Source: Geosiphon pyriformis uo1 (taxonomy: Eukaryota; Fungi; Glomeromycota). Taken from it: 64,000 bases of DNA. The first letter of the stretch is position 1, and every line of letters starts with the position of its first letter. Shown here one piece after another: positions 1,129 through 57,624 of the stretch. Below the pieces are notes generated by a model. The model saw nothing but the letters and a program-made list of their open reading frames with translations. It was not told the origin of the DNA and searched no databases. Where the stretch lies: contig JAAOMT010000470.1 of assembly GCA_016748015.1 (NCBI GenBank), forward strand, positions 175,788 to 239,787, in the 5' to 3' direction. Both the position numbers and the translations under genes were made by a program.

Positions 1129-1132
1129 GTGG

Positions 1133-6637: not shown

Positions 6638-6701
6638 TGTTTTGGATGATTGTTGTTGATATTGGTTCTTTGTTAAATTATATCTCACAGGAAGCACCAA
6701 A

Positions 6702-9190: not shown

Positions 9191-9204
9191 TTATTTTCTC
9201 TTTT

Positions 9205-9870: not shown

Positions 9871-9903
9871 TATGTTTTTATATTCTCTTTTTATTGTTCA
9901 ATT

Positions 9904-11281: not shown

Positions 11282-11311
11282 CTTTTGTTATATTTTTGGA
11301 TTGAAATGTTC

Positions 11312-15169: not shown

Positions 15170-16148
15170 TGTTACCAACTGAAACTTGAAATATTAATTA
15201 ACATAATATTACCCTTATAATTTTTATTATTAAATTAGCATATATTATCATTCAAATTATCACTTATTATTTAATCAAATTATTGAATATTACCAATTAA
15301 TTAATAATCCAATTTGTACTATAGAAATTAGGATGATCAAATTACACAATACTCCGAACCATTTAATATTCAAGAGTTCACTAAAATTTGTAAAAATTTG
15401 CCTAAATAATTAATAGTTCACCAAAATATTTAATAGTTCGCAGAAATAACTTGTAAATTTGCCGAAAGGTATCTTTAGTTTGTCGAAACCATAGTAAAAA
15501 AAATAGTTCAAATTCATAGACTAGTATTACAACAAGTTGTATAAAAGAAGAGCTTTTTTCTTTGAGAAAATGTATTCTTTACCTTTAGATATCTTACTTG
15601 AGACTTATTAATTAGAATTGTTTTCACAAAAATGAAATAAAAATCAAATAATTCAAAAAGTCAACTTTCTTAATTATTGCACTTAAAAATTCCCAAAACC
15701 CAACTAACGTTTTGAAATTAATTAGCTACCAATTTCAATAAACTGTTAGTGACTCCAGGCCTGGATAGAAAACGTTTCCCTTGACAGAATTCTATTTCTT
15801 TTACATTTCTTTTATTTTTCTTTTATTTTTTTATTAAATTCATTTGGGTAGCCTACAGACAAGATTCCTGTAGAAGAGTTGACTTTCACAGCAAAGTAAC
15901 TACACATTTTTAGTAAGCTTTCAGATGAGCAATTCCTGGGAAAGAGTTGACATTTACTACAATGTAACTACACAAGTAACTGGTATAGAATTGGCCATTC
16001 CACTCATAAGTCCAGCAGTTCAAATTATAGGAGATAATTTGAAAATAAATTCAGTTATTGGAGGTTCAACCACATCCAGAAAACGTGAATTTACAGCAAA
16101 CAGGCATCAACAACCATTAAGAAAAGAGACCAAAAACCTCTGGTAACA
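15170..16148 (+). repeat. 5' LTR of F
   Basis: TGTTAC...GTAACA; about 20-bp TTCGCCGAA-like array 15375-15488; TATAAAA near 15540. Confidence 0.95.
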
Positions 16149-16194
16149 TTTGGTGCTCTCTCACGAAAATAACACAGTAACAACAACTTCAAAA

Positions 16195-19100
16195 GTGGTG
16201 ACTTAAACAGATTCAAGAACTCTAGAGTATTATCAGTCAATCTACACCCACTGCAAGCAGAGATTTAACATTCCAGACGGAATTGAAACATTCAAGAAAA
16301 CACTTTACCAGTACATTGAAAATTGCATCAACAATTATCTTCTTGAAAACTACAATATTTCAGAAGTTAGACACAACTTATATGAAAGCTTAATACATTA
16401 CTCTCGTCTAAACACTTAGGATTTTAACAGTCAAATACTTGAAACATACTTCCAAGAACTCAACTTCAATATCATTCAGTATTGTGAAAAAAATTACCCA
16501 GTAAAACAGAAATTTTCTCTTAGTTTTGAATCGGAAACAGAAGAAGGAAAAAAAAAAGGAAACAAAAACTCAGAACTACTCCCAATACACCTAAAACCAC
16601 TGCCAAATATTTACAAACTCCAGAACAAGAAACCAGCTTTAAATTACCACTCTTAATTACACCATTTCCAGCTTTACTTGCTTAGCCGCAAACACCAAGT
16701 TTACCACTTATTTGGTTTTCAAGAATAGAAGATTTTCAGTCACCCAAAAGCCCTATTCAACAACAGGAACCAATATTAACCAGCACAAACCTTATTGACT
16801 ACTTAGCAAAAAATCAAAGTGAAGAGACCAAATCAGAACAAAAAACAGAAGACTCAAAAAATGAAAAAAAAATGGCCTCCACATATATCACAAAAATCCC
16901 TGAGTTCACAGGAGAAGACAATGAAACCAGTTCTCAAGAATGGCTTGACAAAGTCTCAAAAGCAGAAGATGCAAATGGTTGGAATGCTGCCAGAATGTTA
17001 AAAACAATTCCATACTTCTTACAAGGAACAGCTGGTAAATGGTTTGAAAACTTGGAAGCCCTGCCAGAAAACTGGAAAGCATTCAAAACTGCTTTTCTAG
17101 AACAGTTCACTGACAATAACACTTTCATTACTCTTTCAAAATCGGTTTTGAAATATCAAGCAAGAACCAAGTGAATCAATTATGACCTATCTTGGGAAAT
17201 TCAACAAACTGCTTAGAAGAATTTGCCAATTGGAAACCAATGAATACTACTCTAATGCACAAATCTTGGATCAATTCATTGCTGGACTAAAAGACAAACT
17301 TATCAAAAAAGTTTGCCCACATGCACCAGAAGATTTAGCCACTGCTATTCAACAGGCAAAAAACTATGAAATGGCCATGGAAAAAGCCAACTGTACCAAA
17401 CTTGTTAATCTGGCTATTGGAGAAACCAGTTCAGCAGCTGAAGAAAAAATTGACCAATTAACCAAGAAAGTTGAAAACTACTTCACCAACCAACAGCAAC
17501 AACAGCAGCCATAGCAATTACAACAACCACAAAGATACCAACCCCCACAACAACACAATCAAAACAAATTCGGACCACTATCCAACAACCAAATCCAAAA
17601 TTGTCACTATTGTGGAATTTTAGAACACTGGAAACATGATTGTAGAAAATTGCAACAAGACCAACAACAGAGGAACAATCAATGTTATTCCCAACCACAA
17701 CAATCATATTATCCACCACCACCAGCTCAATATTTACCAAGGCCACAATATCCAAACCACTATTATCAACCTGCTCTACAACCAATCCAACAACAGTATC
17801 AACAACCATCCACACCACAATATCAAGTGCTAGCCAGAAAATTGATTCAATATAATCAATTTACATCACAAAACCGTTTTTCAACAAACAACAACAGATT
17901 TAATTTCAACAACTAATTAACCACTTAAAATTCGAATCAACATAGGTCCACACATTATCACACTCAACCCAGTTATCTTACAATACCAGAGGAATCAAAT
18001 TTTCAGCAAACTGCACTTTTTGAAGGTGAAGCTGCAGCACCAAGACAAAACCCTTCCAACAATATTATCTCACCAGCCAGAATTGCCCGAAATGCCAATC
18101 TTTCAGACATCTTTCCATTCGAATTTGAAGCCAATGAATTACCATCTCTACTCAGCAATGTAGCAGTTAACAAACAAAAAGCTATTACAGCAATGTATAC
18201 TGAAGCTGAAGTAGAAGGAAAACCAATTCGCTTAATATTAGACAGTAGATCTGCTGGAAGTATTATCACCTACCAATTAATACAACAGCTTCAACAAACT
18301 GTTGACAAACCAGCTCAAACTGTTATCATTACAGCAAATGATATAAAGAAGACACCAGTAGGAGAAATTGATAATTTTCTATTCACCATTGATGGAATCA
18401 CTATTCCAGTTAAAGTCCTAGTCATGGATGCACCCCAATATCAAGCTTTTGTTGGAAATGATTGGCTTCTCAAGACCAATGCAAATTTAGATTGGGAAAC
18501 TCAGGAATTAAAAATCTTATATCAAGGACAACACACCATAATATCTGTTATGTGTGGAACTTTCAATAAACAATCAAAAAAAGCCCTAGTACTTGAATTT
18601 GAAGAAGAAAAAAAAATGCCACTCACTGAAACCTACATGGCTCTTGAATTAACATCCAATTGGGCTGAGGAAACAAAACAAGAAATCTTTGAAGAATTAA
18701 GAAGATGGAAAAAAGTTAGATATTCTACACCAGAACCATGAAAACAATCACCCTACATTCCACTTAAATACAGAAATTGTAACAAAAAACTTTTATCAAT
18801 GGAAGCCTGCATTTTGCCTAAAGAAAAATATGAAAATCATACTTGTTATTACTGCAAGACTTGCCACAGAGAACGATAGGGCCATCTAATAAAAAGAAGT
18901 GAAAAATGGGACAACACCCCTTGTTTGACTTGTGGAGATATGCTACCAGAAGAATGCAATTGGATTGATGTAGCAATGAAAGGAGAAGTCTGCAATCAAA
19001 TTTGCCAATATGCTTTATCAATTTCAGAAAAAGTTAAAAGAGGAACACTCTTTAATGCAGCATACAACAGTGCTTTTAACAAACTTTATCACTACTCCCA

Positions 19101-21751
19101 TAATGCTGAGATGATTTTTGACCTAGCAATGACATTAGTTAATAAAGCTACCAAAGAAAATGTCTGTCAAATAAAAGAAGCAGAATACATTGAATACACC
19201 ATGGAATTAGCTGAATTCGATTACGAAGATAAAGTAGAAGTCTACTACCAAATTGCAAGTTACACCTACCCAACCCAAGAAGCTCAAATTCAATAATTAG
19301 AGCAAATAAACATTAGGCTATGTGAAGAATGCATTATGCCTTGTAATGAACAGTGGTGTCCTGAATGCTATACTCTTAGCATTCCACTACCAATTAAAGA
19401 TAACCAGTATGAAATCGAATTTGGAATACAGAATGAAGAAGTCCCAGTAACTTTTATTTATCTCACCGAAAACCAACTGGCTATAACACTCAAATACTTC
19501 AACAATAAAGGACAAGGAATCAAGCCTGAAAAAGCCCACAAAATTGACGCTGAATATGATTTAAGATATCCAGAAAGAAATACCCTCATTCTTCAACCAA
19601 AATCTTTTACAAGAATTAATCTAAAAATTGCCTTTGAAATCTCACCAGGAATCATGATGCAAATTGTCTCCTGATTCTTCCTAGCAAGCAAAGAAATCAA
19701 TATAAAAGAAGGAATTATTGATGCTGGATACACTGGAGATATTACAGTAATGCTTCAAAATGAAACTAACAAACCATTCAAGATTGAACATGCTGAAAAG
19801 ATTGCCCAAGCTATTTATTTACCCTTAATCAACATTTCGGGTTTGCAATTAGTCAATCAAAGAGAACAATTAAGGAAAAGCGAGAGAGGAACCCAAGATT
19901 TTGGTTCAACTGGACGATTCATGATTCCAGTTAATATAGCCCTCAATACACAGAATGAATCTCACCAGATTCTCAGACTTCCACAACCAATAACCATTTC
20001 ACCCTTTGGAGAATATCACGAAATTTATACCTGTAGAAAACCCACCACTACTCAACAAATTTTCGAAGCCAATGAACAAATTTGCATGAAACATGGCATC
20101 TCAATCCCAAATATTTATATTCCAAAAGGAATGAAGAAAGTTCGAATTACTTTTTACAACCTCAATCATCACCCCATCATTTTACTAAATAATTTGGAAA
20201 TCAGAATTATTCATAGCAAAATCTTTCAACAAGAATTACCTCAAACAGTTTTAAATTTTTCAGAAATTATTGGACATTCTCTCCCAAAATTCAATCTAAA
20301 ACCCAGTGCTGAAAACTACCACATTGTTATTGGAAAGTTATTCTGAATTAACATAGGACAACTAGAGCCCCAACAACAGAATCAAGCAGTTAATTGCAGA
20401 ACATACAGACATATTTGCTAAAAACAACAATAATTTAGGAAGAACTGATTTGGTTCAACATCAAATCTATACAGAAGATGTCAAATCTAGACGACAACAA
20501 GCATACCAAGTTGCTCTAGAAAGCCATCAATTTATCCGAGAAGAAATTCAAAGGATGCTCAACAATAGGCTCATCCAACCGTCAATGAGCTCATGAGCTT
20601 CACCAGTAGTACTTGTTAAAAAGAAAAATAGAAAAATTTGATTTTGCATTGACTATAAACAATTAAACAATATCACTATTGGAGATGTCTACCTCTTTTC
20701 TCGAATTGATAATATGTTAGATGCTCTTGGAAAATCCAAATACTTTTCAATACTGGATTTAGAAAGCAGATACTGGCAAGTTGCCATGGACCCCAAAGAC
20801 CATACCAAAACAGCATTTACCACACAAGAAGGGAACTACAAATTCAATGTAATGCCCTTTGGATTGTGTAATGCCCCAGCAATATTCCAGAGACTCATGG
20901 ATGTTGTATATACTGGATTTTTTTGGAAATCAGTAGTTGTCTACCTTGATAACACTGATGTTTATTCACCATCTTTTGAACTCCATCTAATTCACCTGCG
21001 AGAAGTTTTTCAACAATTACATAAAGCAGAACTAAAATTAAACATTGAGAAATGCCATTTTGGAAAAACAAGTTTGGCTTTTCTTGATCACATTGTTAAT
21101 AGAGAAGGAGTTAAACCAGATTCAGGAAAAATCAGTGCTGTTAAAAATTTCAAAGTTCCATGGAATACTACAGAATTAAGAGGATTTGTTGGATTAGCTT
21201 CCTATTATTGAAAATTCATTAAAGGATTCTCAGAGATCACAAAACCTCTTAACCAACTCAATACCAAAAATGCAGAATACAAATGAACAGAAGAACACCA
21301 AAATGCATTCAAAAAACTCAAAGAAAAGCTCATTACAGCTCCAATTCTTGCCTACTCAGACTTCAATAACTGATTCCAATTAGCCACAGATGCCTCATAT
21401 ACTGCTTTTGGTGCTATCTTATCACAATTAGATGACAGCAGCAATGAATGAGTAATTGCTTACGCCAGTAGAACACTAAAACCAGCCGAGAAAAACTATC
21501 CAGCAACAGAATTAGAAACTGCAGCAGTAATATGAGCCTTATACCACTTTGACCTTTATTTCAAACCTAAGGAATTTGATATTATTACTGATAATATTGG
21601 ACTCAAATGGTTACAAAACAAAAACATGAAGTTGAATGCAAAACAAACCAAATAGACAGAATTTTTGGCAAACTACCAATATATAGTACATCACAAACCA
21701 GAAAAACTCCACACCAATGTTGACTGTCTTTCCAGAATAAGACAAGATTAG
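16195..21751 (+). pseudogene. F gag-pol (Gag, CCHC, protease, Cys-rich domain, dUTPase, RT, RNase H)
   Basis: MASTYITKIPEF capsid start at 16872; LILDSRSAGS; dUTPase 19520-19918 (RGTQDFGSTG); YLDNTD; ends CLSRIRQD*. Confidence 0.92.
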
Positions 21752-21799
21752 AAAACACAAATCAACACTCAACATAACCAACCTAACAACCAACAAACA

Positions 21800-23185
21800 A
21801 TGAATTCAAAAGACTACAACAATCTCAAACAATATTTGAAGACATTAACAATCCCAACAGATTGGTCTTCAGATGAAAACCATCAATTACAACAACAAAC
21901 CAAACAATATTTCCTACACAACAACATTATTTATCATTAAAATTTCAAAAACCCAGACAAACCACTCAGATTAATACAAGAACATGAAAAAGAGACTATA
22001 TTATACAACATGCACTCAGATCTTTCATCAGTACACTTTGGAAAAGACAGCACTATTCAAAGAACACTAGAATACTATTTTTGACCCTAAATAAGAAAAA
22101 ACATACATTAATATGTTAAATGTTGTGATAGTTATCAAAGAAAAGAAGGAATACGTCCTACTGAACCTTTAAATCCAATCAAAGTTGGACAATCTTTTGA
22201 CCGAGTTGGTATCGATTTAGTCAGACCACTACTTATTATTACGCAAGGAAACCGATACATAACAGTAGCAATAGATTATCTTACCAAATGGCTTGAAGCC
22301 AGAGCTATTCAATGAGCAGATGCAAAATCAGTAGCAAATTTTATTTACAAAGACATTATTTGTAAACATAGATGCCCAATTGAACTTTTATCCGATCAGG
22401 GGACACATTTTGTGAACAACCTAATACAAGAAATTTGTAAATGATTTAATGTCAAAAGACTTTTATCTTCGCCCTATCATTCACAGACAAATGAATTAGT
22501 AGAATGTTTTAACAGAACATTGTGTGAATCACTAGCCAAAGTTTCAACAGATTTTGAGCAGGAATGAGATATCTTTATTCCATCAGTGTTACTAGTATAT
22601 AGAACACTAAAACAAGATACAACAAAACACATACCATTTGACCTTACTTATGAAAGAACAGCAAAACTACCAATTGAATTCATAGTAAAAACATACCCAG
22701 TACAACCAATTACAGAAGAAAACTTACAAGAAACACTTCAGCGAAGAGCTTATACTCTTCTCAGTACTTTAGAAGGAAAAAGACAAATAGCAGCCACTTA
22801 CATTGAAAATTCACAAACCCAACAAAAAAAAAGACATGACAACAAACTGCCATCAGTTACAAACGAATTTAAAGTTAGAAATAAAGTTTTTTTACACTGA
22901 ACTAAGGCTGAAAAACAATGGAATAGAAAATTTGAACATAAATAGGATGGACCATTCTTTGTTTATGAAATCTTAGAAAATGGATCATACAAGTTAAGAC
23001 TTGATGGGAAAATACTAGCAAAAGTTGCACATGGAGATCGATTGAAACATTATCACTCCAGAACACATCCTAAACCATTAATTCCACAAATTGGTACACA
23101 TTCTCCTTTAATTAACCCCAAAGATATTCCCCAAAATTTGGAACCAATAGTTGTTATTGAACAACATCCCAACTTGAACACTTAA
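21800..23185 (+). pseudogene. F integrase, separate 462-codon frame
   Basis: ATG at 21800 after a 48-nt A/C spacer; MHSD..HF, VGIDLV, LLSDQGTHF, GPF module; TAA at 23183-23185 in the same frame. Confidence 0.9.
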
Positions 23186-23302
23186 TTACTATAGAGTCTC
23201 CTATAAAAATTCAAAAACAATCCTACAAAAATAACATAAAAATTTACATATCCAAAAATAATTTTATTTAGGAAAATTTTTAGCTTTGTAAAAATTATTA
23301 TA

Positions 23303-24009
23303 ATGACTATTTCACAAAACATTTAACAATTATTTCAAAAACTAATGTTAGCTTTAAAAACAATACCTGAATTATCTATTACTATTACAGGAAAACATAT
23401 TAATTATACTCAAACAGAAACAGCCACAATCTTATCCCCAAAATCACAAAATTATCACCCTTATAAAAAAACATTAGAAGTTATTCTGGAATTCACCTAC
23501 CAGAACTTTTGAAGCTTGTTTTAAAAGAAAATTTGTCATTCCCACCTATTGACATTCCACCAAATGCCACAATTCAACAAAAACTTCAACAGTGTTTTAA
23601 TGAAGAAAACAGTAAATACTCTCCAATTTATAGATATTTTCACATTGGAAAAACACTGCATGAACAAAAACTGGAACTTACAACAGCCAATCTTACAAAA
23701 GAAGCCATTTAGAAACAACTCTACAATGAATTTAAGACTATGACTGGACCAACAAACAGTTGCTACAAACTTAGAGCAGCTCTTAAATTTTATGACCTAT
23801 TTCACACCTGTGAAAATGTCCTACAAAACCCAATTTTACAACCACTGAAGATCCAATACATTGGAAAACTCACAAAACTGAAATTTCAACAATTTTCAGA
23901 CCAAATTTTTTCAGTAATTTTGGATTATTATCTGGAATGTACAGACAGTACTTGGACTTCGACAGAGCTCAGTCTTGAGGAGAAGATTATGTTACCAACC
24001 AAAACTTGA
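23303..24009 (+). pseudogene. F ORF3 (unknown accessory protein, runs into the 3' LTR)
   Basis: MTISQNI.QLFQKL...ITITGKHINY...YRYFHIGKTL...AALKFYDLF...YIGKLTKLKFQQFSDQI, with one frameshift near 23509. Confidence 0.72.
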
Positions 24010-24955
24010 GATATTAATTAACATAATATTACTCTTATAATTTCTACTATTAAATTAGCATATATTATTGTTCAAATTATCACTTATTATTTAATCAAAT
24101 TATCGAATATTACCAATCAATTAATAACCTGATTTGTATTATAGAAATTAGGATGATCAAATTACACAATACTTCGAACCATTTAATATTCAAGAGTTTG
24201 CTGAAATTTGTAGAAATTCGCTAAAATAATTAATAGTTTACCAAAATATTTAATAGTTTGCAGAAATAACTTGTAAATTTGCCGAAAGGTATCTTTAGTT
24301 CATCAAAACCATAGTAAAGAAAATAGTTCAAGTTTATAGACTAGTACTACAACAAGTTGTATAAAAGAAGAGCTTCTCTCTTTGAGAAAATGTATCTCTT
24401 ATTTTTAGATATCTTACTTGAGACTTATTAATTAGAATTGTTTTCACAAAAATGAAATAAAAATCAAATAATTTAAAAAGTCAACTTCCTTGAAAATTCC
24501 CAAAACCCAACTAATATTTTGAAATTGATTAGCTACCAATTTCAATAAATTGTTAGTGACTCCAGGCCTGGATAGAAAATGTTTCCCTTGACAGAATTCT
24601 ATTTTTTTTACATTTCTTTTATTTTTCTTTTATTTTCTTATTATAATCATTTGGATAGCCTACAGACAAAATTCCTGTAGAAGAGTTAACTTTCACAGCA
24701 AAGTAACTACACATCTTTAGTGAGCTTCCAGATGAGCAATTTCTGAAAAAGAGTTGACATTTACTACAACATAACTACACAAGTAACTGGCACAGAATTG
24801 GCTATTCCACTTATAAGCCCAGCAGTTCAAATTATAGGAGATAATTTGAAGATAAATTCAGTTATTGGAGGTTCAACCACATCCAGAAAACGTGAATTTA
24901 CAGCAAACAGGCATTAACAACCATTAAAAAAAGAGACCAAAAACCTCCAGTAACA
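23990..24955 (+). repeat. 3' LTR of F
   Basis: Direct repeat of 15170-16148. Confidence 0.95.
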
Positions 24956-24959
24956 ATGG

Positions 24960-27380
24960 TTATGAGTTTCTCTTTGAGGGTAGCTCCATTGAACAATAGG
25001 ACTTCTGAGAGTTCATTAATTTCAAAGAGAAATATAGTAACAAGTGACTCATCTTTCATAATGGTTACTGGTAAGATGTTGTTAGTAAGTATGGATTGTT
25101 GATTGGACTCTGGGTTGTGGGATTGGGTGTTTTCTAAGGTAACCAGAAAACTTAAATAGTGTTGGGAATTCGAATTTTGGGTGGGCCCAATTCTCAAATT
25201 TTGTGACCGTAATCCTGTTAAATAGTGTGAAAAGCTAGGGATCAGTTAGTGAACAACCATTGCTGATCTTTAGTTTTAAGCAATTCTGGATCTCGGATTG
25301 CCTGATGTCATTTGAGCTGGGTTTTGGAGTAGTGTCTAAATTGGCTGTGGTTGATAAATTACTGGTGACTGCAGTTGATAGATTGTTTGGTGCTGTGGTT
25401 AATAAATTGCTGGTGTCTGTGGTTGATAAATTGAAGGTACATATACTGGTGGTTAATAGATTGGCTGCTGTGTCATTGGCTGGTAAGTGGGTTGATATTG
25501 ATCTTGATTTGGGTAATGGTTCAGGAGGTTTGAAATTGGTGATCAGAGTTTCTGTATTGATTTTCTGATTGTGAGTTACTATACAAATGGCAATTGACTC
25601 AGATATGGTCTTGTTTACTACAGTTGTAGCAGACATGCATCTTAGGCTGCCATGGCTGATTGGATGATAATGATGATCATAACTGATTTTGAAAATGATT
25701 TGTGTTTCCTGAATTATTGTGTTATTGTGGTGGTTGATAAATTGCCCAATTGTCAGCTAAGTATCTCTTTAATTTCTGATTGATTGAATTACTAAATTGT
25801 TTTAATTTGGAATCCAATTCAGATGATCTATTTATTACTAAATTAATGGCTTGGGTATGGTTGGCTTCTAATTTTGCTGTTTCAAAATCTCTGATGTTGA
25901 TAACTACAGCTTAAAGATCTGCTGAGTGTAATAGACATATGTATTGGAGAATGCTACTGCACAATCCTCTAATAAATTGATTAAGAATTTGTGGTGCTGT
26001 AAAATAGTCAGCTTGAATTGCCTGAATTTGGTGTAGGTTTCTATGGAAGCATCTTATATATGTAGTGACTGCTTCAGTTTCCCTTTGTTTCATGGTGGTG
26101 AAAGTGTTGACCAGGTAATTGATACTATTATTGTTACTAAAGTATCTCAAAAACTCTGTTTTGAATGTGTTAAAGGTGACCAGTTTGTTGATCAAGCTTT
26201 AATACCAGGAATTGGCAGTGTCTTGTAAGAAGTATGGAATTGCTTGAAGTGCTCTGGCATTGTCTCAATTATTAGCAGTAATGACTTTTGTGACATCATT
26301 AATTTATGCTTGGGCATCATCTTTTTTGCTGGTGAATTTTTTGAGTTTGGTGATTGAAGCATAGGCCATTAGATTCAAGTTTAATGGTTGTTGTGGTAAC
26401 AGTTGAGATTGTTGCAGCTGTTAAAGTGGCTGTTGAGATTGTTAAAATGGTACTGGCAGTGGTTGGATTTACTGATCCAGTTGCTGTAATGGCTAACCAA
26501 TTGGTTCAACTGGTTAATTAATTATGATTTCTGGAGGTACATGTTGTTGATTAATTAAATCAGAGTTTCAATTATTCTGATTTGGCGGTGTTTGAATATT
26601 TGGAGCTTTGATTTCTGGATTTTCTAAATTTGAATTTTGTGGAGTTTGACTGTTTGGAGTTTCAACTTCTGGGTTTTCTGGGATCAGGTTTTGGTAAGTA
26701 AATTCCTGATCTTCTTCTTCTTTTTCTGATTTTGTTACTTCTCATGGGTCAAAAATTCCAAAATTGGATTGAGATGGCAGTGATTGATATCCTGATGATG
26801 TTGGTAATTGTGATTTAAATTCTTCAAAATATTCACTATATATTCCTAATAGATCTGTTTTCCTTTGTTTACTTTAAAATAGAAGTTGGCCAAACATTGA
26901 TGTCATATTTGATGTGAATGCATCTACTGACATTATGTTGATGGCACTTCCAGATGTATAGTGATAGGATGAGTTGTTTGGTGATTCAACTCTGGTTTTC
27001 TTTCAAATAGGTGGTTGTATTTATTTTGGTGTTACAGCTGGTGTTTGTAATCTTCCTTTGTCTTTGTTTATGTAAGTGATGAGGAATTGTTGTTGGGTGT
27101 ACCTTTTAATGGTTTGGTTTATTTTTCTGATGATTGGTGTGAAACTGTAATTTCTTGGTAAGCTGATATGTTGAAACAATTCTGTATAGAAATTTTCTCT
27201 TGTGGATTCGATGTTAACTGTTTCTCCTAAGCAATCTGTGCTTTTGTCATTAATGTAGAAGTTAAAGGCTGATTCTGCTGAGAAATGGTTATTGTTTAAT
27301 CCTAATTGTTGGCTGTACTATTGAAACAAAGATTTGGTGAATCCTAAATAGTTGGTTCTTATAATTTCTAATTCTGCTAC
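24960..27380 (-). pseudogene. C gag (5' part of gag-pol)
   Basis: Retrotransposon gag core (FLRYFSNNNSIN...QILNQFIRGL), knuckle near 25600, Q/P/Y-rich linker. Confidence 0.88.
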
Positions 27381-27439
27381 TTTTGGAATAATTGTTGGTA
27401 CTGTTCTCTATAGGATTATATCTTACAAGAAGCACCAAA

Positions 27440-28313
27440 TATTACAGGTGATTATTTGGTGTCTCAAAGCAAATAACAAACCTGTAACTTGGTGCTCAAT
27501 TAATATACTGATGTTAATTACTGAAGGTGGTTTGTATCTGAAGGTGTTAGTTGAGTTCTTTGTATAATGGACAGAGAGTTAATAGTTGTTTTCAGTAGCC
27601 TTTTGGAATCACAATTCTATCAATTTTTTTCTCGGCTTGGTGGCCAGCAATCCTCTGGTAAGTAATCTGTAATTCTTGTACATGTTCTACCCACTTGCAG
27701 GAGTCTTTTACCAAGCAATTCTTGATGTCAATAATTCAGTGCTTAATCCTTAATCAATTTAGTAAACCACAAAAAAAGATAAAAATAAAACAAATAAAAA
27801 AAAACAAAAAAAATAAAGAAATAAGCCAAGGCAATTTTGTTAAAGTTAGTATTTTGTTAATAGTCATGATCAAGAGCTATTGTTCCAGTATAATTAAGTA
27901 TGAATTTCTATCAACATAAAGTGTTGATAGTGGAAAGTAGATTGAGATAGTAAATAATTATTTATTGATATTTGTGATATAGAAGATTGCTTAGATTAAA
28001 TCTAAACTGAGAGGTCTCTAACTAAAGGATTCTGCTTTTTTCTACTTCTATCACTATTGCTATATATACATAATTGAGATTCCTCAATTCCTTAATTTTT
28101 TACACCAGAAATCTTAAAATTTCTGGAATCCTACAATTTCTTTAGAAGGAATCTTGCAATTCTGGAATCTTGCAATTCCTTGTACAAGAATTCTGAAATT
28201 TTTGGAATCCTGCAATTCCTCTTAAGAGGAATCCTGAAATTCCACATTTACTATGGTTACTTCTGATTGGTTAATTTATGTGCTAATATATTTCCTATGT
28301 TCTATGAATAATA
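27440..28313 (-). repeat. 5' LTR of C
   Basis: Adjacent PBS; homologous to 8371-9190. Confidence 0.92.
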
Positions 28314-28957
28314 CTGGCAATTCTTTAGTAAGTAATTCTTAATTTTAAGTGGCTATTCTCTCACAGGAGTTTTTTACCAGACAATTCTTGACATTAATAA
28401 CTCAGTGCTTAATCCTTAATTAATTAGTAACAACAAAGAAATAAAATACAAAAGAAAATTTAAAGAAAATAAAATGTAAGCCAAGACAAGTAACATTAGT
28501 ATTCTGTTAATAGCCATAATCAAGAGCTATTATTCTAGTATAATCAAGTATTTAATACTATCAATATAAAGTTTTAATAATAAGAAAAGTGATTTAGATC
28601 ATAATAATTATTTATTGATATTGATAATTATAATAAAGATATGATAATAGGAAGGTATTGGTAATTTCTAAATTATTCTTTTCTGCTTTTAATGCTCTTG
28701 TTATATATACATAATTTAGATTTTATAAGATTGTTTACATTCTTGAGAGATATGTTATAATTTTTTGAGCAATGCTCATATTGCTGAGTGATGTGCCTTA
28801 ATCTTCTAAAATTGCTCTATATTGCTAAGCAATGTGCCATAATTTCTGATATTGCTCCATATTGCTGAGCAATATGCTTATGTGTTAACTACTATTTTTT
28901 TATTGGTCTATCTGTTTTCCTCCTATTTTCTTTTATATATTTTTTTTATGAGTAATA
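28314..28957 (-). repeat. D 3' LTR, U3-side part
   Basis: Matches about 55311-55954 and contains the ATTGCTGAGCAAT array at 28735-28880. Confidence 0.9.
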
Positions 28958-28970
28958 TTATCTCCTCCTT

Positions 28971-29620
28971 TTAATATTGAGTTCTGTCAAAATCTTCACT
29001 TTGAATTAAGTCTAATACTTTTTTTTTAATATTGTTTGTTTAACTTTGTTTCTTATATTTTTGATTTACATGTTGTTTATTTTTTCCCATTGGTTAATAG
29101 TAATTGTTTCTATGTTAGAATGTAACAATATTTCTGGGTAATTTTGAAATATTGTGTGTAGTCAATAGATTGTTCTAATGTGCAGTAATAGATTTCTTTT
29201 CTTCTTGATAATATTTTCAATATTCTGTATTGTTTCTTAATTAAATATTCTTTTGGCTTTATCAAAATATAATTTCTGAATGTTTAACTTTTGTCCCAAC
29301 TGATAGTAGTAATATGGTATTGGAAATTGTTCTGTCCATTATTTTTAATTATCTTTTGAAAGTTCTTTTGTTGAAACCATGATGGGTATTTTTCTAAAAA
29401 TGTTTTTTACTTTCTCTACTATTTTGTTTAACCAGTTTTTTAATTGTTTTTGTGGTTACTAATATGGTGTACTTTTTTTTTGTTTAGTGTCTTGATAACA
29501 GATTGTTTGGTAATTGATGACAATTTCTATGTTTAATTGTTGCTGACTTAAGGCCTGAAACAATTGTTGAACTAAGGTGTAAATATGATATGGTATTTCT
29601 ATTTTTTTTGTTGCTTTTGT
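28971..29620 (-). pseudogene. D ORF3 (divergent allele)
   Basis: HIYTLVQQLFQAL...WTEQFPIPYYYYQLGQKLNIQKLY...IRTIY.LHTIFQNYPEILL. Confidence 0.7.
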
Positions 29621-29656
29621 CACATATTCTGTGTCTTTATATACTCTTTTGGTTGT

Positions 29657-31044
29657 TCAATTTGATGTGTTTGGTTCAATAATTATAATTGGTTCTGGGT
29701 CTTGTAGAATCTTATCTGGTTGGACTAGTATTCATTGTACTTTCAGTTGTGGAATATTATTGGTGGATGATGATACTATATAGTGATATGGTTTCAATCA
29801 ATCACTATGTGCTGCTTTGGCTAAGATTTTGTTGTTCCATCTTAATTTATAAGCTTCATTTCCTAGAATTTTTTCTATGTGAAATGGTCTGTTTCATTTG
29901 GGATCAAATTTTCTACTTTATTGTTTTTCTGCTTTGGTATGATGTAAAAGTATTTTGTCTTCAATTCTGAATTCAATTGGTTTATTTGATAGTTGGTTAT
30001 TATGTCTTTTTTTTTGTTTTTCTTGTGATTTTTAAATATTATCAGCTGCTCTTTGCTGTTTGTTTTCTAGTGTTTTGATTAAGTCATATGTTCTTTTCAA
30101 TAATATTTCTTGGAAATTGTCTTCTGTTATTGGTTTAGTTGAATATGTGCTAATTTTTATTTCCACTGGTACTGTTGCTGTTTTACAGTATACTAATTCA
30201 AATGATATTGCTTGTGTAGTATTTTGCTTTATTGTCTAATAAGCAAATAATATTGATGATATAAACAAATCTCATTCATCTTAATTTTTTTGGCTAATTT
30301 TGGCAATTGCTTCACATAATGTTCTATTGAATCTTTCAACTAAGCCATTGGTTTATGGATAATATAGTAATGATAATAGTCTTTTTATTCCAAATTTTTG
30401 ACTTAATTCTATTAATATTCTATTTATAAAGTAAGTTTCTTAATCAGATAGTAATTTTTTTGGGCATTTGTGTCGACAAATTAGATCTTGATGAACAAAT
30501 TTAGCTATAAATTTTGCATCTGCTTTTTAAATGGCTTTTGCTTCTGGCCACTTAGTAAGATAATCCATGATTACTGCAATATATCTGTTTCCTCTGCTGG
30601 TTATTGTTAATGGTCTGACTAAGTCAATTCCAATGCAATCAAATAGTTGTTCTACTTTGATTGATTTCAATAGTTCACTGGGTTTTATTCTTCTTTTTCT
30701 TCTTCTTTAACAAACATCACAATTTTGAACATATTGAATAATATCTGGATACATAGATGGTCAATAGTATCTTTTTCTGGTTTTTTCCATAGTTGCTTCT
30801 TTATAGAAATGTTCTGCTATTGAATCTGAGTGCATATTGAATAGTATTGTTTTTTCTCTGGTTCTGTGATTACTCTGAGTAGTTGGTCTGGATCCTTCTT
30901 GTTTTTCCGATATAATATATTTTAATAAGTGATAAAATATTTGGATTGTTGTTTTATGTTGTTTTATTTTTTTGGAGATAATTTCTCTTTGAACTGCTGG
31001 ATACTAATATAGTATTGGAGTTGTTGATATTTTTGTGTATTCAT
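29657..31044 (-). pseudogene. D integrase (separate ORF)
   Basis: ATG at 31044; collinear with the C and E integrases. Confidence 0.88.
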
Positions 31045-31073
31045 CTTTTGTTATATTTTGGGTTAAAATAGTT

Positions 31074-34000
31074 TTAGATTTGTCTTATTCATGACAAACT
31101 ATCAGTATTTCCATTTTTTTTTGTAATATACTGTATAATTAAATAGTAAATATTCTATTTTTCATCTAGTATGACAATTATCTCCAAATTTTTGCTTCTG
31201 AATTGAAGTCAATTCTTTATGGTTAGTGTATATGTCAAATTTTTGGCTTAAGTATTTCTTCTATTTCATAACTGCCTAATAAATTGTTAAGTGTTTTAGT
31301 GCTGGTATTCTATAGTTTTTTTCTGCTGAACTTAAGCTGCAACTAGCATATACTACTGGATGTTCTCTTCCATCCAGTCTTTTTTGAGATAGTACTGCTT
31401 CCAATGCTTGATCTGATGCATCAGTTGTAATTATGAATAGCTTGTTATGATCTGAATAGATTAGTACTGGAGCTTGAATAAGCTTTTTTCTTAATGTATT
31501 AAAAGCTTTTTGCTAGTTTTCTGTCCATTCATATTTGGTGTTCTTTGTTTGGAACTGGTATAATGGCTGAGCCAGTTTGGAAAAGTCTTTAATGAATCAG
31601 TAATAGTAACTCACAAATCATAAGAATGCTTGTAATTCAGTCAAGTTGGTTGGTATTGAGAAGTTTTTAACTATCTTAATTTTGTCTGAATCTGTCTTGA
31701 TTCCATTTTTGCTCACAACATGTCCCAAAAATTTTAATTCTGTTTTGCCAAAGAAGCATTTGGTGACATTTAACTTTAATTTGGCTCTTCTTAGTCTTTT
31801 AAATACTTGTTGAAAATAATGTAAATGATTATTGAATGTCTTGGAGAACACATTGGTATCATCTAAATAAACAACTATTAACTTCCACAGTAGTCTAGTG
31901 TAGACAATTTCTATAAGCCATTGAAATGTGGCTAGAGTATTTATTAAGCCAAAAGACATAACTTCAAATTCAAAATTTCTTTTTCGGTTTGTAAAAGCTA
32001 TTTTCTTCTTATCTTCTGGTTTTATGGCTACTTGTCAGTAACCATTGTCTAAATCTAAAGTTAAAAACCATTTTTTTTTTCAAAAACATTGAAAAGTTTT
32101 TGGATTTTTGGGTTTGAATAGCTATCTCTCTTTGTTACTCTATTAAGTTTTTGGTAATCTACACAAAAGTGAATTTTTCCATTCTTTTTATAGACTAGTA
32201 CTATTGATAATAATCATGGACTCATTAATAATTGGATTAATTCATTATTTAACATCTGATTGATTTCTTGTTAAATAATTTTATAGTTTGTTGGTGGTAT
32301 TTGGTATGTTCTCTGTTTAATTGTCATTGCATCTTTAGTTTTGCCAAATTTATTTTTACTGGCAAAAATGTCATTGAAGTTGTTGAGTAATATCTTAAGC
32401 TACATACATTGTAGTGAGTCTAAATTTTCTAAGTTCATCTGTTCTAATTGTTCTGATTGGAGCAGATAACATTCTTCTCATTCATATATTGTTTATAATA
32501 TAATATCTATATATCTACATAGTTGTAGAAAGTCTAAAATAGAGTTTGGTGGTTGTTTTTCAACCTTAGTGCTTAAATATCTGATGGTAGTTCCTTTTGG
32601 TATCTTAATAACATTTTCTGTTGTGTTGTAGATGGGAATTTTGATATGTTTCAGGCTTTTGGCTAATATATAAAGATTGGTAAGTTTAATTTTTTCTGAT
32701 TCATAAATAATAGTTTTCACTTCAAAAATTTGAGCTTAATTTTTTACTCTTTTTTTTATGGCTAACATGTATTGGTTATATGACAGAATAAAAATTAATT
32801 GACAGGTGAAGATAATTTCTTTTTTGTTAAAAATCTTTTCCTCTACTATATTGACTGGTATATCTATTTTACCTATGAATCTAAATCTACTAATTTCTTT
32901 AGCTGTAATTCCTAATTTTTTTCTGTTTCCCACTGATACTAATTGAGCTATTTTAACCAAAAACAAAAATATTGTCTGTGCTATTTTTTTGTTTGGTTCT
33001 ATAATATAAGCCTTTTCTGAGTCATTTTGTAATATTGTAATGATATTTCTCATATATCTTGCCTTAATTATTCTTCTTCTGATATTGATTTCTTTTTTTG
33101 CTAAACTACTCTTAAATGCTAATTAAACTATTATTGTTTCTGGGATTTTTAATGTTACTTTGAAATCAATGCAGATGTGTAAATATGGTTCCAATTTGAT
33201 GGTTTTTTTTCCCAGATATCTTAAATCAAACTTTGTATCAATATTATGTGTGCATTCTGGCATGATATCTTTATTATTATTGCTAAATCATTTAAGTTCT
33301 TGCTCTTTGGTGAAATCAAGAAGTGCAATATATTGTTCTGGGTTTAAATTAAAGTCCAAACTATTGTTATTTTTATTGCCATTTTAAACAAAGCTGGAAC
33401 TATTGTTTTTGTCATTATCATTTTCAAAGTTTGAATCAAGATTGAACTGTAATTTCGATTCTAATATACAATTACTGATTAGTTTTTTCTCTTTAGGAAT
33501 CGTGTAGATTATGTACATCAGTGGATTGTAAATGAGATCACATTCATTACAATATTAGAAGTCATATGGAATTAAATAGTGGCTACATAATAAAGTGTTT
33601 AATTGCTCTAAACATTGTTCTTGTTTCTCTCTAGTGGGTGCTAATTCTTGGTAGTGTTTATGGAATTGTTCTGAGTCTATAGAGTCTAGGACAATATTTG
33701 GATTTGGGCTCCAATTGAGTTTTATGGGTTTTGGTAAGTTGTTTTTAATTGTTTTTATTTCTTTTGGTAATGCTTTTTCAATTTTGACAAGTGCTATTCA
33801 CCATATTTTATCATTATCATGTAGACATCTGTCCAAACATTTTACTGCTCTTCTCTATACTGCTTCTATTGATGTTTTTTTTCTTATCTAATTACTTATT
33901 AAAATCATGTATTGGCACAATTTTTTACACATTTCTCCTTACTCTGGAATGTTATTTTACATTCCTTCATCTAAAAGAGTTTTTTTACATACAAGACATG

Positions 34001-36606
34001 ATTCATTATCCCACTTTTCTTGTTATTTAGGTTATCCAAAACACTCTAGAATACATGATTGGCAATAAAACTTTGTTGCTGTTGTTCATTCCTTGTTATT
34101 ATCATAGCATGCCATAATTAATGCAAATAAGTTTTGGTTGATAATAGTTTAACTGAGTTTGTGGTATATAAGTGTATGGTATATATGTAAAGGTAGTGGC
34201 TTGAATTGGTTTTTCTTCTTTCTTCTTGCCTTTTCCTTTTTCTTTTTCTTCCCAGATAAAAATTAATGGTAGTTTATTATGATTGTTATTGGCTTATGAG
34301 ACTTGATAGGCTTCCCAAGTAGGTTTGTTTACTTTTTTTTTGATATTAATTAGTGATGCTGGTGTAGTCATAGGTTTAAAGTAACTACAAGTTGCTGGTA
34401 TACATATGTGTTGGTTATTTTGGCTAAGTTGCAATTCTTGAATCTTCTAGTTAAGCACAGTGTTTGTCTTGGACAGCCAATTATTACTAACTAAAACTTG
34501 GTACTAAGTGGCTTTTATTACCAATACTTTGATGGGGACAATAATACCATTGACTTTAAAAGAGAAGTTGTCAATTTTGCCAATAGAAGTTTTGATTGGC
34601 CCATCAGCTGTAATAATCCTGATGCTTACCACATGATTAACTTGGTGATCTAATTGGTTTATGAGTTGTCATGTGATAATACTGCCTGCTAAACTGCTGT
34701 TCAAAATCAGTTTGATTGACTGACCATTGATTTTGGCATTAGTGTATATTGTGGTGATAAGTTTGGCATCAAGGGTGGCTTTATTAAAAAGAAATGTTAC
34801 AGTTGGTTCTTCAATTTTGAAAGGAAAAATGACTGTTAGTAATTTGTTGTTGATAACTATTGTTGATAAAATATTGCTGGTAAGTGGTTTTTGGTTTGTT
34901 TTCTAATTGTTGGTTTGGGTGGTTTTGGGAGTCACAAGAAGGCTTAAATAGTTCTGAGAATTCAGGTTTTGGACATATTTAGTTCCCAAATTCCTTGGAT
35001 GCAATCCTGAAGGTTGTTAAGATGTACTAGGAATTGGTTGATGAACAATCATTGCCAATCTCCAATTTTGCTAAACAGTTCTCAGTCTTTGATTTCTATT
35101 GGGCACAGTTATTGGTGATGGTGTTTGAATGGTTTGTAGTTGATACATCACTGATAACTGTGGTGGTTAATATATTATAGGTGTTATTAGTTGATAAATT
35201 AGAAGTATGTACATTGGTTGTTGTGTCATTGGAATGTAATTGAATTGATATTGATCTTGATTTGGATAATAACTTGGAGTTTGAAATCTGCAATCAGAGT
35301 TTTGATATTAATTTTCTGATCATAAATTATTGTTATAAACTCTGCAGCTGGCTCTAATATAATCTTGTTTATCACAATTATAGCAAACATGCATCTTTGG
35401 TTGTTATGGTTAATTGGTTGATGATGATAAACATGTTTGATTTTGGAAATAATTTGAGTTTTCTGAATTATTATGTTATTGTGATGATTGATAGATTGTC
35501 TGATTGTTAGCTAAATACCCTTCTAATTTCTGATTAATTGAATTACTGAATTGTTTCAATTTGGAATCCAAGTCAGATAATCTGTTTATTACTAGATTCA
35601 CAGCTTGGATGTAGTTGGCTTTGAGTTCTGCAGCTTTAAAATCTCTGGCATGAGTAATGGCTGCTTGAAGGTTGGCTGGATGTAGTGAACATATATGTTG
35701 CAGAATGCTGCTGTATAATTTACAAATGAATTAATTCAAGATTTGGGCTATGGTGAAATAATTGGCATTAATGGCTTGGATTTGGCACAAGTTTCTGTGG
35801 AAATGTCTTAGGTAAGTAGTGACTGCTTCAGTTTCTTCTTGCTTGATGATGGCAAAGGCATTGGCTAAATAATTAATACTATTATTGTTGCTAAAATATC
35901 ATAGAAACTCAAGCTTAAATGCATTAAAATCTTGAAGTTTGTTGACTAAACTTTGATATTACAAGTTGGTAGTATCCTGAAGGAAATATGAGATGGTTTG
36001 AAGTGCTTTGGCATTGTTCCATCTATTGGCTGTGATGGCTTTTTCTATATTATTTAGTCATACTTGCACATCATCTTCTTTGCCAGTGAATTTTTTGATT
36101 TTGGCAATTGGTACATATGTTATTAATTGTTGTTATGATAGTTATTGAAGTGGTTGTTGTGGTTGTTATTAAGGTAATACTTGCAACTATTAAATTGATT
36201 CAGTAATTGGTTCAATTAGTGACTAATTGATTACAATTACTGAAAATAAGTATTGCTAATTAATAATGTTAGAATTGAGATTGTTCTGATTTTTTAAAGT
36301 TAAAACACTCAAAGTTTGGTTTTCCAGATTTTCTGAGATTGGATTTTTAGTATTAATTCCTTAATTGCTATTTTTTTCTTCAGAGTCAGTTAATTTTTAA
36401 GGACTGATGACTCTAAAATTTGGTAGTGGTGGTGGTGATTGAACTCCTAATAGCATTGGAAATTATGAGTTAAATCCCTTAAAATAATTACCATATGTTT
36501 CTAATAACTTTGCTTTCTTTTGTTTACTTTGGAATGGAATTCTGTTTAGTGGTGTTGTTATGCTTACTGTAGATGTGTCTATTATATTAATAGTGCTTCT
36601 AGGTGT
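31074..36606 (-). pseudogene. D gag-pol, main part (N-terminal piece continues at 54617-55043)
   Basis: RT YLDDTNVF (31618-31959), dUTPase about 32870-33263, protease about 34400-34760, gag core about 35600-36120. Confidence 0.9.
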
Positions 36607-37456
36607 TGTTACAGTTGATTAATTGAGGTCTCAAATCCAATAACAAACTTGTAACTTGGTGCTCAAAAAGCTATTTCCATTAATGATATTCTGAAAGTAT
36701 TGTATCTAAAGATTTTGATGGAGTCTTTTGTATAATGAACAGAGATTCAATAGTTGTTTTATCCATAGCTTCCCAGACTCGCAAGTCTGTCAATTCTTTT
36801 CTCAGCTTGGTGGCTGGCAATCCTCTGGTAAGTAATCTGTATTTTCTGTACATGTCCTACCCACTCGCAGGAGTCTTTTACCAGGCAATCCTTGATATCA
36901 GTAATCAGCACTTTTAATCAATTGGTTAGTGCACAATAACAAAATCACAGAAAAATAAAAAAAATAAAGAAATCTAAAGAAATAAGCCAAGGCAATTTAC
37001 AGATTAGTATCCCGTCAATAGCTGTGATCAAGAGCTATTGTTCCAGTATGGTTAAGTATCAATTACTATCAACATAAAGTGTTAATAGTGGGGAGTGGAT
37101 TGAGATATGAAATAATTATTTATTTGATGATTGTGTTTCTAGGCTAAGGATTCAGTAGTATCAATTCTGTCTTTTCTGTTTCTAACACTACTGCTATATA
37201 TACATATTTGAGATTCCTCAATTCCTCAATTCCTTGTGACAGAAATCTTGGAATTCCTGGAATCCTGCGATTTCTGATGAAAAAAATCCTGGAATTCTGG
37301 AATCCTGCGATTTCTTGTTGAGGAATCCTGAAATTTCTGGAATCCTGCAATTTCTCTAAAAGGAATCCTGGAATTCCACATTTACTATGTCTACCTCTGA
37401 TTGGCTAATATCTACTGACTAATAATACTATATTTTCCTATATTCTATGAGTAACA
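36607..37456 (-). repeat. 3' LTR of E
   Basis: 850-bp direct repeat of 53767-54616; 40-bp-period array 37241-37378. Confidence 0.95.
37241..37378 (-). promoter_or_regulatory. U3 enhancer-like array (40-bp period, GGAATCCTGGAATTC(C)TGGAATCCTGCRATTT core) upstream of the LTR TATA box
   Basis: Units start at 37241, 37281, 37321 and 37361; TATATA at about 37195-37202; the same array occurs in the A, B and C LTRs. Confidence 0.65.
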
Positions 37457-37470
37457 TTATTCCTTTCTTT

Positions 37471-38121
37471 TTAATATTGAGCTCCGTCAAAATCTAATTC
37501 CTTTAATTCTCCCTCTTGAATTATTTCTTGAACTTCTTTTTCGAGTATTACTTGTGTTATTTGACTTTCTAATTCTTCAAATTGGGTGTTGGTCATTTTT
37601 CCCAATTGATTATTTGTAACTGTATCCATTGCTGTGTTGAGTAAAATTTCTGGTTAGTCTTAAAATCTCATATATAGCCGATAAATGCCTTAAGCTTGTG
37701 TGGTTAGATTGTTCTTTCCCACAAATTGTTCCAGTTGTCTCAGTATTGTTGTGTTAAATAACCATTTTGTTTTGTTGGTGTACAAATTCTGGATATTTAT
37801 GTATTGTCACAAATGGAAATGACAATAGTTTTTCGGAAATTGTTGTGTCCACCAAGTCCAATTTTCTCTAGTAAGTTCTTGGTGTAGTCCGACTATTTGT
37901 TGTTCTTTTATGGCCAATTTTATCTTGGTTATGATCTTGTCAACAACATTTTCAAGTCTTTTCTGTACTTTGTGTTGTGGTATCTTTGCCATATTTTTGT
38001 AATGAATGGTTTGTTGATTGATTGTAATTTCTATTTCCTGGTGTTAGATTAATTGAAAAATTTGTTGGACTAGTGAATGGATATTGTCCATAATTTCTAT
38101 TTTTCTGATCTTTTCTGTCAT
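37471..38121 (-). pseudogene. E ORF3 (about 215 aa, unknown function)
   Basis: Single frame with point stops: IHSLVQQIFQLI...NYCHFHL.QYINIQNLY...TQA.GIYRLY...NQLGKMTNTQFEELESQI...FDGAQY*. Confidence 0.78.
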
Positions 38122-38154
38122 GTCAACTATGTTTCTTATATATTCTTTTGTCAA

Positions 38155-39537
38155 TCAATTGGACGTGTTGTTGTTGATGATAATGATTGGTTCCAGATCT
38201 CATGGAATCTCATCTGGTTGGACTAGTATTCTCTGTACTCCCAATTGTAGAATATTATTGGTAGATGCTGATGCTATCTGGTGATATGGTTTCAGTCAAT
38301 CACTATGTGCTGCTTTGGCTAAGATTCTGTTGTCCAGTCTTAATTTGTAAGCTCTATTTTTTAAAATTTCTTCTATGTAAAATGGTTTGTTCTATTTGGG
38401 ATTAAATTTTCCACTCTATTGTTTTTCTGCTTTGGTATGATGTAGTAATACTTTGTCTCCAATTTTAAATTCAACTGGTTTGTCTGGTAGTTGACTATCA
38501 TGTCTTTTTTTCTGTTTTTCTTGTGACTTTTGAATATTATTAGCTGCTCTTCTTCATTTGTTTTCCAATGTTTCCATTAAGTCATATGTTCTTTTCAGCA
38601 ATGTTTCTTGAAAATTCTCTTCTGTTATTGGTTCAGCTAAATATGTATTAATTTCTCTCTTTACTGATAATGTTGCTGTTCTCCCATACACTAATTTAAA
38701 TGGTGTTGCTTGTGTAGTATCTTGTTTCATTGTCCAATAAGCAAATAGTACTGATGGTATGAACAAATCCCAATCATTCTGGTTTTCTTGGCTGAGCTTA
38801 GCTATTGCTTTACACAATGTTCTGTTAAATCTTTTGACCAATCCGTTGGTTTGTGGATGGTATGGTGATGATAATGGTTTCTTAATTCCGAATCTTTGGC
38901 TCAATTCTGTTAATGTTCTGTTCACAAAATGAGTTCCTTGGTCTGATAATAATTCTTTTGGACATCCATGTTGACAAATCAAATTCTGATGAACAAATTT
39001 GGCAACGGATTCTGCATTTGCTCTTTGAATTGCTTTTGCCTCTGGCCATTTAGTGAGATAGTCCATAGCTACTACTATGTATCTGTTTCCTCTGCTGGTG
39101 ATTGTTAATGGTCTGACTAAATCAATTCCAATATGGTCGAATGGTTGTCCCACTTTGATTGGTCTTAATGGTTCACTGGGTCTTGTTCCTCCTTTTCACT
39201 GACAAGCATCATAATTTTGAACATATTGAATGATGTCTGGATACATTGATGGCCAATAGTATTTCTTTCTGGTTCTTTCTATGGTTGCTTCTTTGTGAAA
39301 ATGTCCTGCTGTTAGATTTAAGTGCATGTTGAATAATATGGTCTCTTTTTTTAGCTCTGTAATTACTCTGGTTGGTTGATCTGGATCCCTTCTATTTTTT
39401 TGATAAAGTATATTTTGGTGAGTGATAAAATATTTTGATTGTTGTTTGATACTCTTTCGTTCCATTTGAGATAAATTCTTCTTGAACTGTTGAATAGTTA
39501 TATAATGTTGAAGTTGTTGATATTTTTGTATGTTCAT
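38155..39537 (-). pseudogene. E integrase, separate 461-codon frame
   Basis: ORF-track pieces 39196-39537 (MNIQKY...MH...GHF...DACQ) and 38554-39153 (IGIDL, SDQG, HPQTNGL) are in one frame. Confidence 0.93.
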
Positions 39538-39601
39538 CTTTTGTTGTATTTTTTGTTAGTATTGTTCTGGTTTTTGTTATATTTTTGGATTTGAAATGTT
39601 G

Positions 39602-46244: not shown

Positions 46245-46292
46245 TTTGGTGCTCTCCCACGGAAATAACACAGCAAAAAAAACAACTTCAAA

Positions 46293-53704: not shown

Positions 53705-53766
53705 TTTTGGATGGTGTTTGTTGATGCTGGTTTTCTGTAGGATTATACCTTACAGGGAACACCAAA

Positions 53767-57595: not shown

Positions 57596-57624
57596 GGTTG
57601 TTGTGGCAGGTGGGTTGGTAATTT

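Follow-up and report, generated by a model that had tools for sequence, protein, structure and literature searches.

The window, by which we mean the whole 64-kb stretch of DNA that was analysed, consists of eight nested or adjacent decayed LTR retrotransposons that were delimited through self-alignment and LTR ends (Table 1). They are lettered A to H, the letters being matched to those of an original prediction for this DNA by inference from the layout. Between the LTR pairs lie gag, PR, RT, RH and IN in the order that marks Ty3/gypsy elements, and the Pfam matches to gag (Retrotrans_gag, Ty3_capsid), aspartyl protease, dUTPase, reverse transcriptase (RVT_1) and integrase (rve) assign the elements to this group. 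The LTRs end in TGTTAC..GTAACA, decayed in some copies, the PBS reads TTTGGTG, and a purine tract precedes the 3′ LTR. Self-alignment reveals dense nesting: the insertion of C separates the 3′ LTR of D into two pieces (8165-8367 and 28317-28946), and E has inserted close to the D 5′ end. Every copy in the window is broken. Since the two LTRs of a pair are separated by 43-88 transitions and just 1-7 transversions, and CpG stands at 0.21 of expectation, relatedness was measured in transversions.

Several further features of these elements were observed. A dUTPase domain lies between protease and RT (49458-50390 and 58210-59628). In D, E, F, G, H and L001, a near-intact element outside the window, RNase H ends in a stop and IN follows as its own ORF (window 21745, 31105, 39610, 51908 and 57637; L001 774-800), so that pol is split. 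G and H, which belong to different families, are both without IN and most of ORF3, the deletion beginning just past the RNase H stop (51908-52030 and 57580-57640). The U5 sequence GAGCACCAAG, seen at 27430-27500 and at the corresponding ends of the A, B, D and E LTRs, is complementary to TTGGTGCTC of the PBS region, so a U5-PBS hairpin could form.

Table 1. Elements, ORF3 copies and U3 features in the window
Feature	Coordinates	Strand	Remarks
Element A	1-1128	+	Cut by window edge
Element B	1130-7615	-	Without 3′ half and without ORF3 in window
Element C	8371-28311	-	Inside D, contains F
Element D	8165-55952	-	Ty3/gypsy LTR retrotransposon; self-alignment, LTR ends
Element E	36607-54620	-	Inside D, contains G
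Element F	15170-24955	+	Inside C
Element G	45276-53154	+	Inside E
Element H	from 56555	-	Runs off window end
A ORF3, C-terminal part	1-242	+	Window edge cuts the rest
C ORF3, decayed, A/C/E type	9205-9870	-	
D ORF3, decayed	28971-29635	-	7 internal stops, frameshift near 29020; start approximate
D candidate specificity helix	about 29165-29195	-	Within D ORF3
E ORF3, decayed, A/C/E type	37471-38124	-	
F ORF3, distant type	23303-24018	+	About 22% to A/C/E type; one frameshift near 23460
G ORF3, C-terminal remnant	52026-52205	+	About 59 codons; IN and most of ORF3 deleted
H ORF3, C-terminal remnant	57443-57631	-	About 60 codons; IN and most of ORF3 deleted; 94% identity with P0218/P0219 from the database
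Recombined block in D	28500-29700	-	IN stop to about 150-200 nt past TATA; transversions from C/E about 20%, against 2-3% in IN
A 3′ LTR array, A/B/C/E type	327-459	+	Lag test, site listing
B 5′ LTR array, A/B/C/E type	7409-7519	-	Site listing
C 5′ LTR array, A/B/C/E type	28125-28243	-	Shortened 3′ LTR copy at about 9064-9120
E 3′ LTR array	37242-37377	-	7 copies GGAAT-N6-ATTCC, period 40; same array at 54402-54537
D 3′ LTR U3 array	28777-28876	-	3 copies of 19-bp palindrome CAYATTGCT-N-AGCAATATG, period 40-41
D 5′ LTR U3 array	55733-55873	-	4 copies of the D 19-bp palindrome, period 40-41
D 3′ LTR TATA box	28702-28711	-	55708 in D 5′ LTR
F 3′ LTR array	24195-24309	+	6 copies of AGTTCGCCGAAAT-like sites, period 20-21
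F/G further arrays	15375-15489 (F 5′), 45494-45607 (G 5′), 52392-52505 (G 3′)	+	AGTTCGCCGAAAT-like sites
H 3′ LTR array	57246-57330	-	4 copies, period 23

ORF3, a separate gene

ORF3 is a real, separate gene under purifying selection. Between the ORF3s of D and C/E, 53-59 transversions fall at third and 21-24 at second positions over about 210 codons. In C, D and E it lies downstream of IN in the same frame; IN stops at the same codon in all three, and full-length relatives of ORF3 begin at their own Met. In L001 it forms a separate 230-aa ORF, 316 nt after the IN stop and out of the IN frame, that continues through the PPT into the LTR. Open copies encode 209-239 aa, and many full-length open copies exist.

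The peptides by which the original prediction had recognized the A/C/E and D ORF3s are found in the sequence, and the strong divergence it had described for D is borne out, as identity to database proteins of the A/C/E type is 39-41% for D ORF3 against 59-84% for C and E. A profile search of 1.84 billion representatives returned 112 ORF3 relatives, and ten that were looked up comprised seven G. pyriformis and three metagenome proteins. All 68 proteins matched with E ORF3 are named Geosiphon pyriformis, as are all 120 of the matches listed, from a total of 189, in the search with F ORF3. Relatives were absent from viral contigs in all three scans, and phage records gave no match to the RT. The ORF3 types are A/C/E, D-like (P0232 and P0240, 60-63% identical to D), H, F/G, one more Geosiphon type and the metagenome types.

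Three other accounts of the reading frame were considered and rejected. An in-frame C-terminal extension of IN conflicts with the stop shared by C, D and E and with the separate frame 316 nt away in L001, and L001 also rules out a read-through IN-ORF3 fusion in which the TGA might be a decayed CGA. An env-like protein of the errantivirus kind, with signal peptide and transmembrane segment, fails on hydropathy, the maximum over 19 residues being 0.27-1.29 in seven of seven proteins, none of which has a membrane segment by this measure.

The ends of the frame vary between types. In F/G and L001 it crosses the PPT into U3 (window 23960-24020 and 52145-52205; L001 3095-3148) and the protein ends in an acidic tail (6-7 D/E and 0-3 K/R among its final 30 residues) that might serve as an activation domain; the A/C/D/E/H-type ORF3s end just before the PPT. 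The IN-ORF3 spacer of F, about 120 nt long (23190-23300), contains TATAAAA and TTTTTAG, a possible splice acceptor, and is without the F/G motif.

The ORF3 product is predicted to be a soluble, helical, stand-alone protein. The helical model of P0009 has a pLDDT of 74.8, with a core at about 90, and places a helix at residues 117-127, a four-residue Gly/Asn turn and a second helix at 132-145. Searches used whole-protein models, so that neither is a known fold excluded nor a new fold shown by them: Foldseek with P0009 found nothing at E 0.001 or better in either PDB or BFVD, VIA gave a best Z of 5.8 that is driven by long helices, and the best Z of 5.1 for the P0082 model (pLDDT 48.3; 6hn7_A, rmsd 3.1, 69 aligned) is level with unrelated rows. 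Searching the PDB by sequence with ORF3 returned 0 matches, PHROGs and NCBIfam gave weak scattered matches only, and 35 ORF3 scans yielded no Pfam family match above cut-off, including none to DUF1985 or DUF287. DUF1016_N, which is HTH-like, scored a sub-threshold 18.7 bits against a cut-off of 32.8 (E 0.002 and 0.0039) and was matched at E 0.1 or better by 2 of 23 members; a match to FtsQ, implausible in itself, had the better E of 0.0005. Comparison by hhalign with 15 YhcG N-termini (those left of 23 loci, 5 of which were not supplied, after 3 of 18 translations proved to contain stops) gave a probability of 1% or less from a shallow profile and did not confirm the DUF1016_N hint. The ESM Atlas gave no usable match to P0009, and for P0237 the nearest cluster consists of Mucoromycota proteins (0.94, 176/256 features), which is a lead only.

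U3 arrays and the recombined block of element D

The predicted 40-bp-period array beside the TATA box of A, B, C and E is present: over the 170 nt that precede TATA, the strongest lag is 39-40 in the A 3′, B 5′, C 5′ and both E LTRs, 41 in both D LTRs and 23 in the H 3′ LTR, and 0/200 shuffles reach it in each. The sole exception among the nine LTRs of A-E and H that make up this test is the C 3′ LTR, where the array is partly lost and 19/200 shuffles reach its lag; the four F/G LTRs lie outside the test, their 20-21-bp copies being listed separately (Table 1). Periods overall are thus 39-41, 20-21 and 23 bp. The unit in A/B/C/E is a 16-bp inverted repeat with alternating 23-24/17-bp spacing. 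That both D LTRs carry a different palindrome array of about 40 bp also holds, with three and four copies spaced 40-41 bp apart, and local alignment to the A/B/C/E arrays gives z of 0.3-1.4 against 29-49 within A/B/C/E (60 shuffles). The TATA box of D lies about 245 nt from the LTR start, likewise in A, B, C, E and H. The 20-21-bp array of F/G, the distant ORF3 of F and the 23-bp array of H were described correctly, but the F/G and H arrays stop about 60 bp short of TATA, the G ORF3 is a remnant and that of H has about 60 codons left.

The arrays of A, C and E are only 1-5% transversions apart, while ORF3 divergence between C and E amounts to 11% over all positions and 14% at third ones, and that of R/U5 to as much as about 20%, so the array is either constrained or exchanged within its type. 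A decaying CpG, visible as CG/TG/CA/TA variants at one core position, is found in the A/B/C/E, F/G and L001 motifs and less surely in those of D and H.

Two likenesses between motifs were noticed post hoc. One strand of all five contains WTYGC, for which a simulation (22/20000) covered exact 4-mers, not the degenerate core. The F/G and L001 motifs both have TTCGCC, and their ORF3 helices share R-x-x-A-A-x-R-L-Y.

In L001 the U3 carries a clustered motif at irregular spacing (4 copies, 0/60 shuffles), with one copy reversed, that is not palindromic. TTGCCCT occurs five times in the element against 0.35 expected (0/200 shuffles), three times in U3 and twice in the spacer between IN and ORF3, where the sites are 21-bp phased about 45 nt before a TATAAAT (1/5000 and 1/500 shuffles). 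The spacer is not a copy of U3, as 70/200 shuffles align equally well. This layout is that of one element, and L002 belongs to the same LTR family; in C, D, E and F of the window no copy of the element's own U3 motif was found upstream of ORF3.

Within the L001 spacer (2173-2336), CCCT cores were observed at 2220, 2240, 2261 and 2282, in 20-21-bp phase and followed by the TATAAAT, a candidate internal promoter.

Element D took ORF3 and U3 as one old recombined block on a C/E-like backbone. Transversions between D and C/E amount to 5-7% in RT-RH, 2.4-2.6% in IN and 20-21% in ORF3, with a jump at the IN stop near 29700 and continued divergence over ORF3, PPT, U3 and the start of R. Third positions differ at 53-59 of 210 in ORF3 and 10-12 of 169 in the IN core, so the block is older rather than just quicker to change as protein. 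D groups with C in the RT tree (support 0.975), and the ORF3 tree places D outside A/C/E (1.000). Among A-E, mosaic structure is also seen in R/U5, in RT and at the gag end. The original prediction regarded D as the same family in RT, IN and U5; RT and IN bear this out, at 2-7% transversions to C/E, but R/U5 is mosaic in A-E and the divergence runs past TATA. In contigs of run X1 aligned to D and E, the D-type ORF3 occurs in many contigs, and the few D-E joints among those listed (28622-37163, 29104-37627 and 28961-37463) have short or unstated sides and fall in conserved stretches, so that they neither establish nor exclude uncoupling.

Mere decay was rejected as the source of the D divergence, since D differs by transversions and the differences within LTR pairs are nearly all transitions.

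Because its ORF3 and U3 arrived in one contiguous block, the co-change in D is a single linked event and not evidence of cognate binding. The original prediction had counted a single 3′-end recombination against itself, and for D such an event took place, but a cognate pair would also have to move as one block, so this origin does not refute the cognate idea. F/G and H differ from A-E by 21-25% transversions in RT as well, and therefore provide no independent contrast between ORF3 and array.

Cognate regulation and its alternatives

Four array types pair with four ORF3 types, with 0 mismatches in the seven window elements that retain any ORF3. The original prediction of a DNA-binding ORF3 is supported in part: the D contrast reduces to one event, but the motif repeat in L001 and, weakly, covariation of a helix are leads in its favour. 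The decaying CpG at the centre of most motifs is a further lead, reminiscent of anti-silencing by VANC. At residues 132-138 (P0009 numbering), the predicted start of the second helix, A/C/E types match one another at 5-6 of 7 positions, D-like types at 0-2 of 7, and A and H types at 0 of 7, in small groups of three C, two D-like and two H proteins. The segment ranks 2 of 107 windows, with a nominal P of 0.02 for a choice made after the alignments had been seen and a best-of-all-windows P of 0.43; against D alone, residues 176-182 outscore it. Only about 300 nt separate the candidate helix from the array, and recombination is common elsewhere in these elements. We take the predicted helix 132-145, conserved within an array type and different between types, as a weak lead for cognate recognition.

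What we tentatively favour, at a little short of an even chance, is that ORF3 is a cognate DNA-binding regulator of its own U3 array that would activate or de-silence the LTR. ORF3 would be made from a subgenomic transcript and would bind the phased U3 sites via helix 132-145, which would set the specificity; bound ORF3 would activate or de-silence the LTR rather than repress it; and ORF3 and array, about 300 nt apart, would be swapped as a cassette, as D has done. Possible, though we hold it with considerable doubt, is the wider proposition that a fungal LTR lineage encodes its own sequence-specific transcription or anti-silencing factor without a named domain, in which factor and CpG-centred array would diversify together as an exchangeable cassette, in the manner of phage immunity regions, with at least five orthogonal pairs on shared pol backbones.

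The arrays could instead be enhancers for different host factors, with ORF3 doing another job and co-varying as a fast-diverging neighbour in template switches, a reading that we regard as credible without thinking it probable. One block is enough to account for D; R/U5, RT and the gag end are likewise mosaic among A-E; and in the accessible text on plant elements U3 variation between subfamilies supplies different host regulatory motifs (PMC10794571). The A/C/E LTRs contain CCAAT and two to three two-unit heat-shock-like sites, but a three-unit heat-shock element was found in only one of seven LTRs scanned. A host factor serving both L001 promoters would explain that layout too. This reading requires, however, that arrays in one and the same position serve four or five unrelated host factors, and it does not predict that residues 132-138 track the array when ORF3 otherwise falls to about 65% identity, although that covariation is weak.

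It is unlikely that ORF3 is an accessory for integration, packaging or nuclear import that works with the separately encoded IN, the arrays being unrelated to it. In D, E, F, G, H and L001 a stop closes RNase H and IN does stand as its own ORF, ORF3 follows IN in frame in C, D and E, and the elements are densely nested; but D joins a C/E-like IN (2.4-2.6% transversions) to an ORF3 20% away, so that ORF3 travels with U3 and not with IN, and in L001 it is out of frame and 316 nt distant. Least probable of all is a Rev- or Tat-like protein that would bind the arrays as RNA for export or stability. The genomic transcript does carry U3 at its 3′ end, and in A-E and F/G the motifs are palindromic. 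Those of H and L001, however, lack this symmetry, L001 has one site in reverse orientation and places its sites shortly before two TATA-like boxes, and spacings of 20-21 and 40-41 bp fit the phasing of DNA.

Comparison with known systems

Tnt1 is a plant example of subfamilies that share a pol and differ in their U3 motifs. The modular evolution of plant U3 regions offers the same picture of subfamilies with common pol and different U3 motifs, and in the accessible text no element-encoded factor accompanies the U3 in plants, unlike the situation here (PMC10794571). The Retand/TRP28 Ty3/gypsy elements of plants have an additional ORF that separates pol from the 3′ LTR, tandem repeats particular to the family and a prediction of DNA binding, but the TRP28 ORFs are antisense and their repeats internal (PMC11963269), whereas ORF3 is in sense, its arrays lie in U3 and it has no match to TRP28. 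LTR elements of bdelloid rotifers also bear a dUTPase and varied, exchangeable ORF3s; these are env-like, GDSL esterase or DEDDy exonuclease, and the fungal ORF3 is without a membrane segment or such a Pfam match (PMC5408684).

Self-encoded sequence-specific activators have been shown for complex retroviruses (Tas) and plant DNA transposons (VANC, TnpA), with cognate activation extended to TnpA and transposases in a 2026 preprint (10.64898/2026.08.24.746577). In open-access text, supplements aside, we found no such activator in a fungal LTR retrotransposon and no description of this fungal ORF3 family, although TE libraries in supplements may include these elements. LTR elements make up 41.2% of the G. 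pyriformis genome (PMC11952901), and a cognate anti-silencer, if real, could explain their spread in a methylated genome. As there are open natural ORF3 copies with defined candidate sites for the A/C/E, F/G and L001 types, the cognate question is directly testable.

The original prediction likened ORF3 to foamy virus Tas, which binds upstream of the internal promoter and in U3 (PMC3185757). No sequence match of ORF3 to Tas appeared in any library scan, so the comparison stands as an analogy, for which VANC is at least as close. Like Tas/Bel1, ORF3 is an accessory ORF located past the structural genes and before the 3′ LTR, and in L001 only, one motif precedes the accessory gene as well as the LTR TATA box; unlike it, ORF3 belongs to Ty3/gypsy elements without env, the sites are tandem palindromic arrays rather than single response elements, and the window elements are without internal sites. 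Experiments have shown that VANC proteins bind tandemly repeated motifs particular to their family and remove methylation (PMC5735166), while ORF3 is known here from sequence. ORF3 and VANC of the Arabidopsis VANDAL elements are both accessory genes whose divergence outpaces that of the core enzyme, both go with short tandem motifs in non-coding DNA that are specific to the family, and both occur in a methylated host genome; VANDALs, however, are plant DNA transposons, and VANC has DUF1985/DUF287, to which ORF3 has no match. If the proposed role is right, ORF3 would work like VANC or Tas, yet it is a member of neither family.
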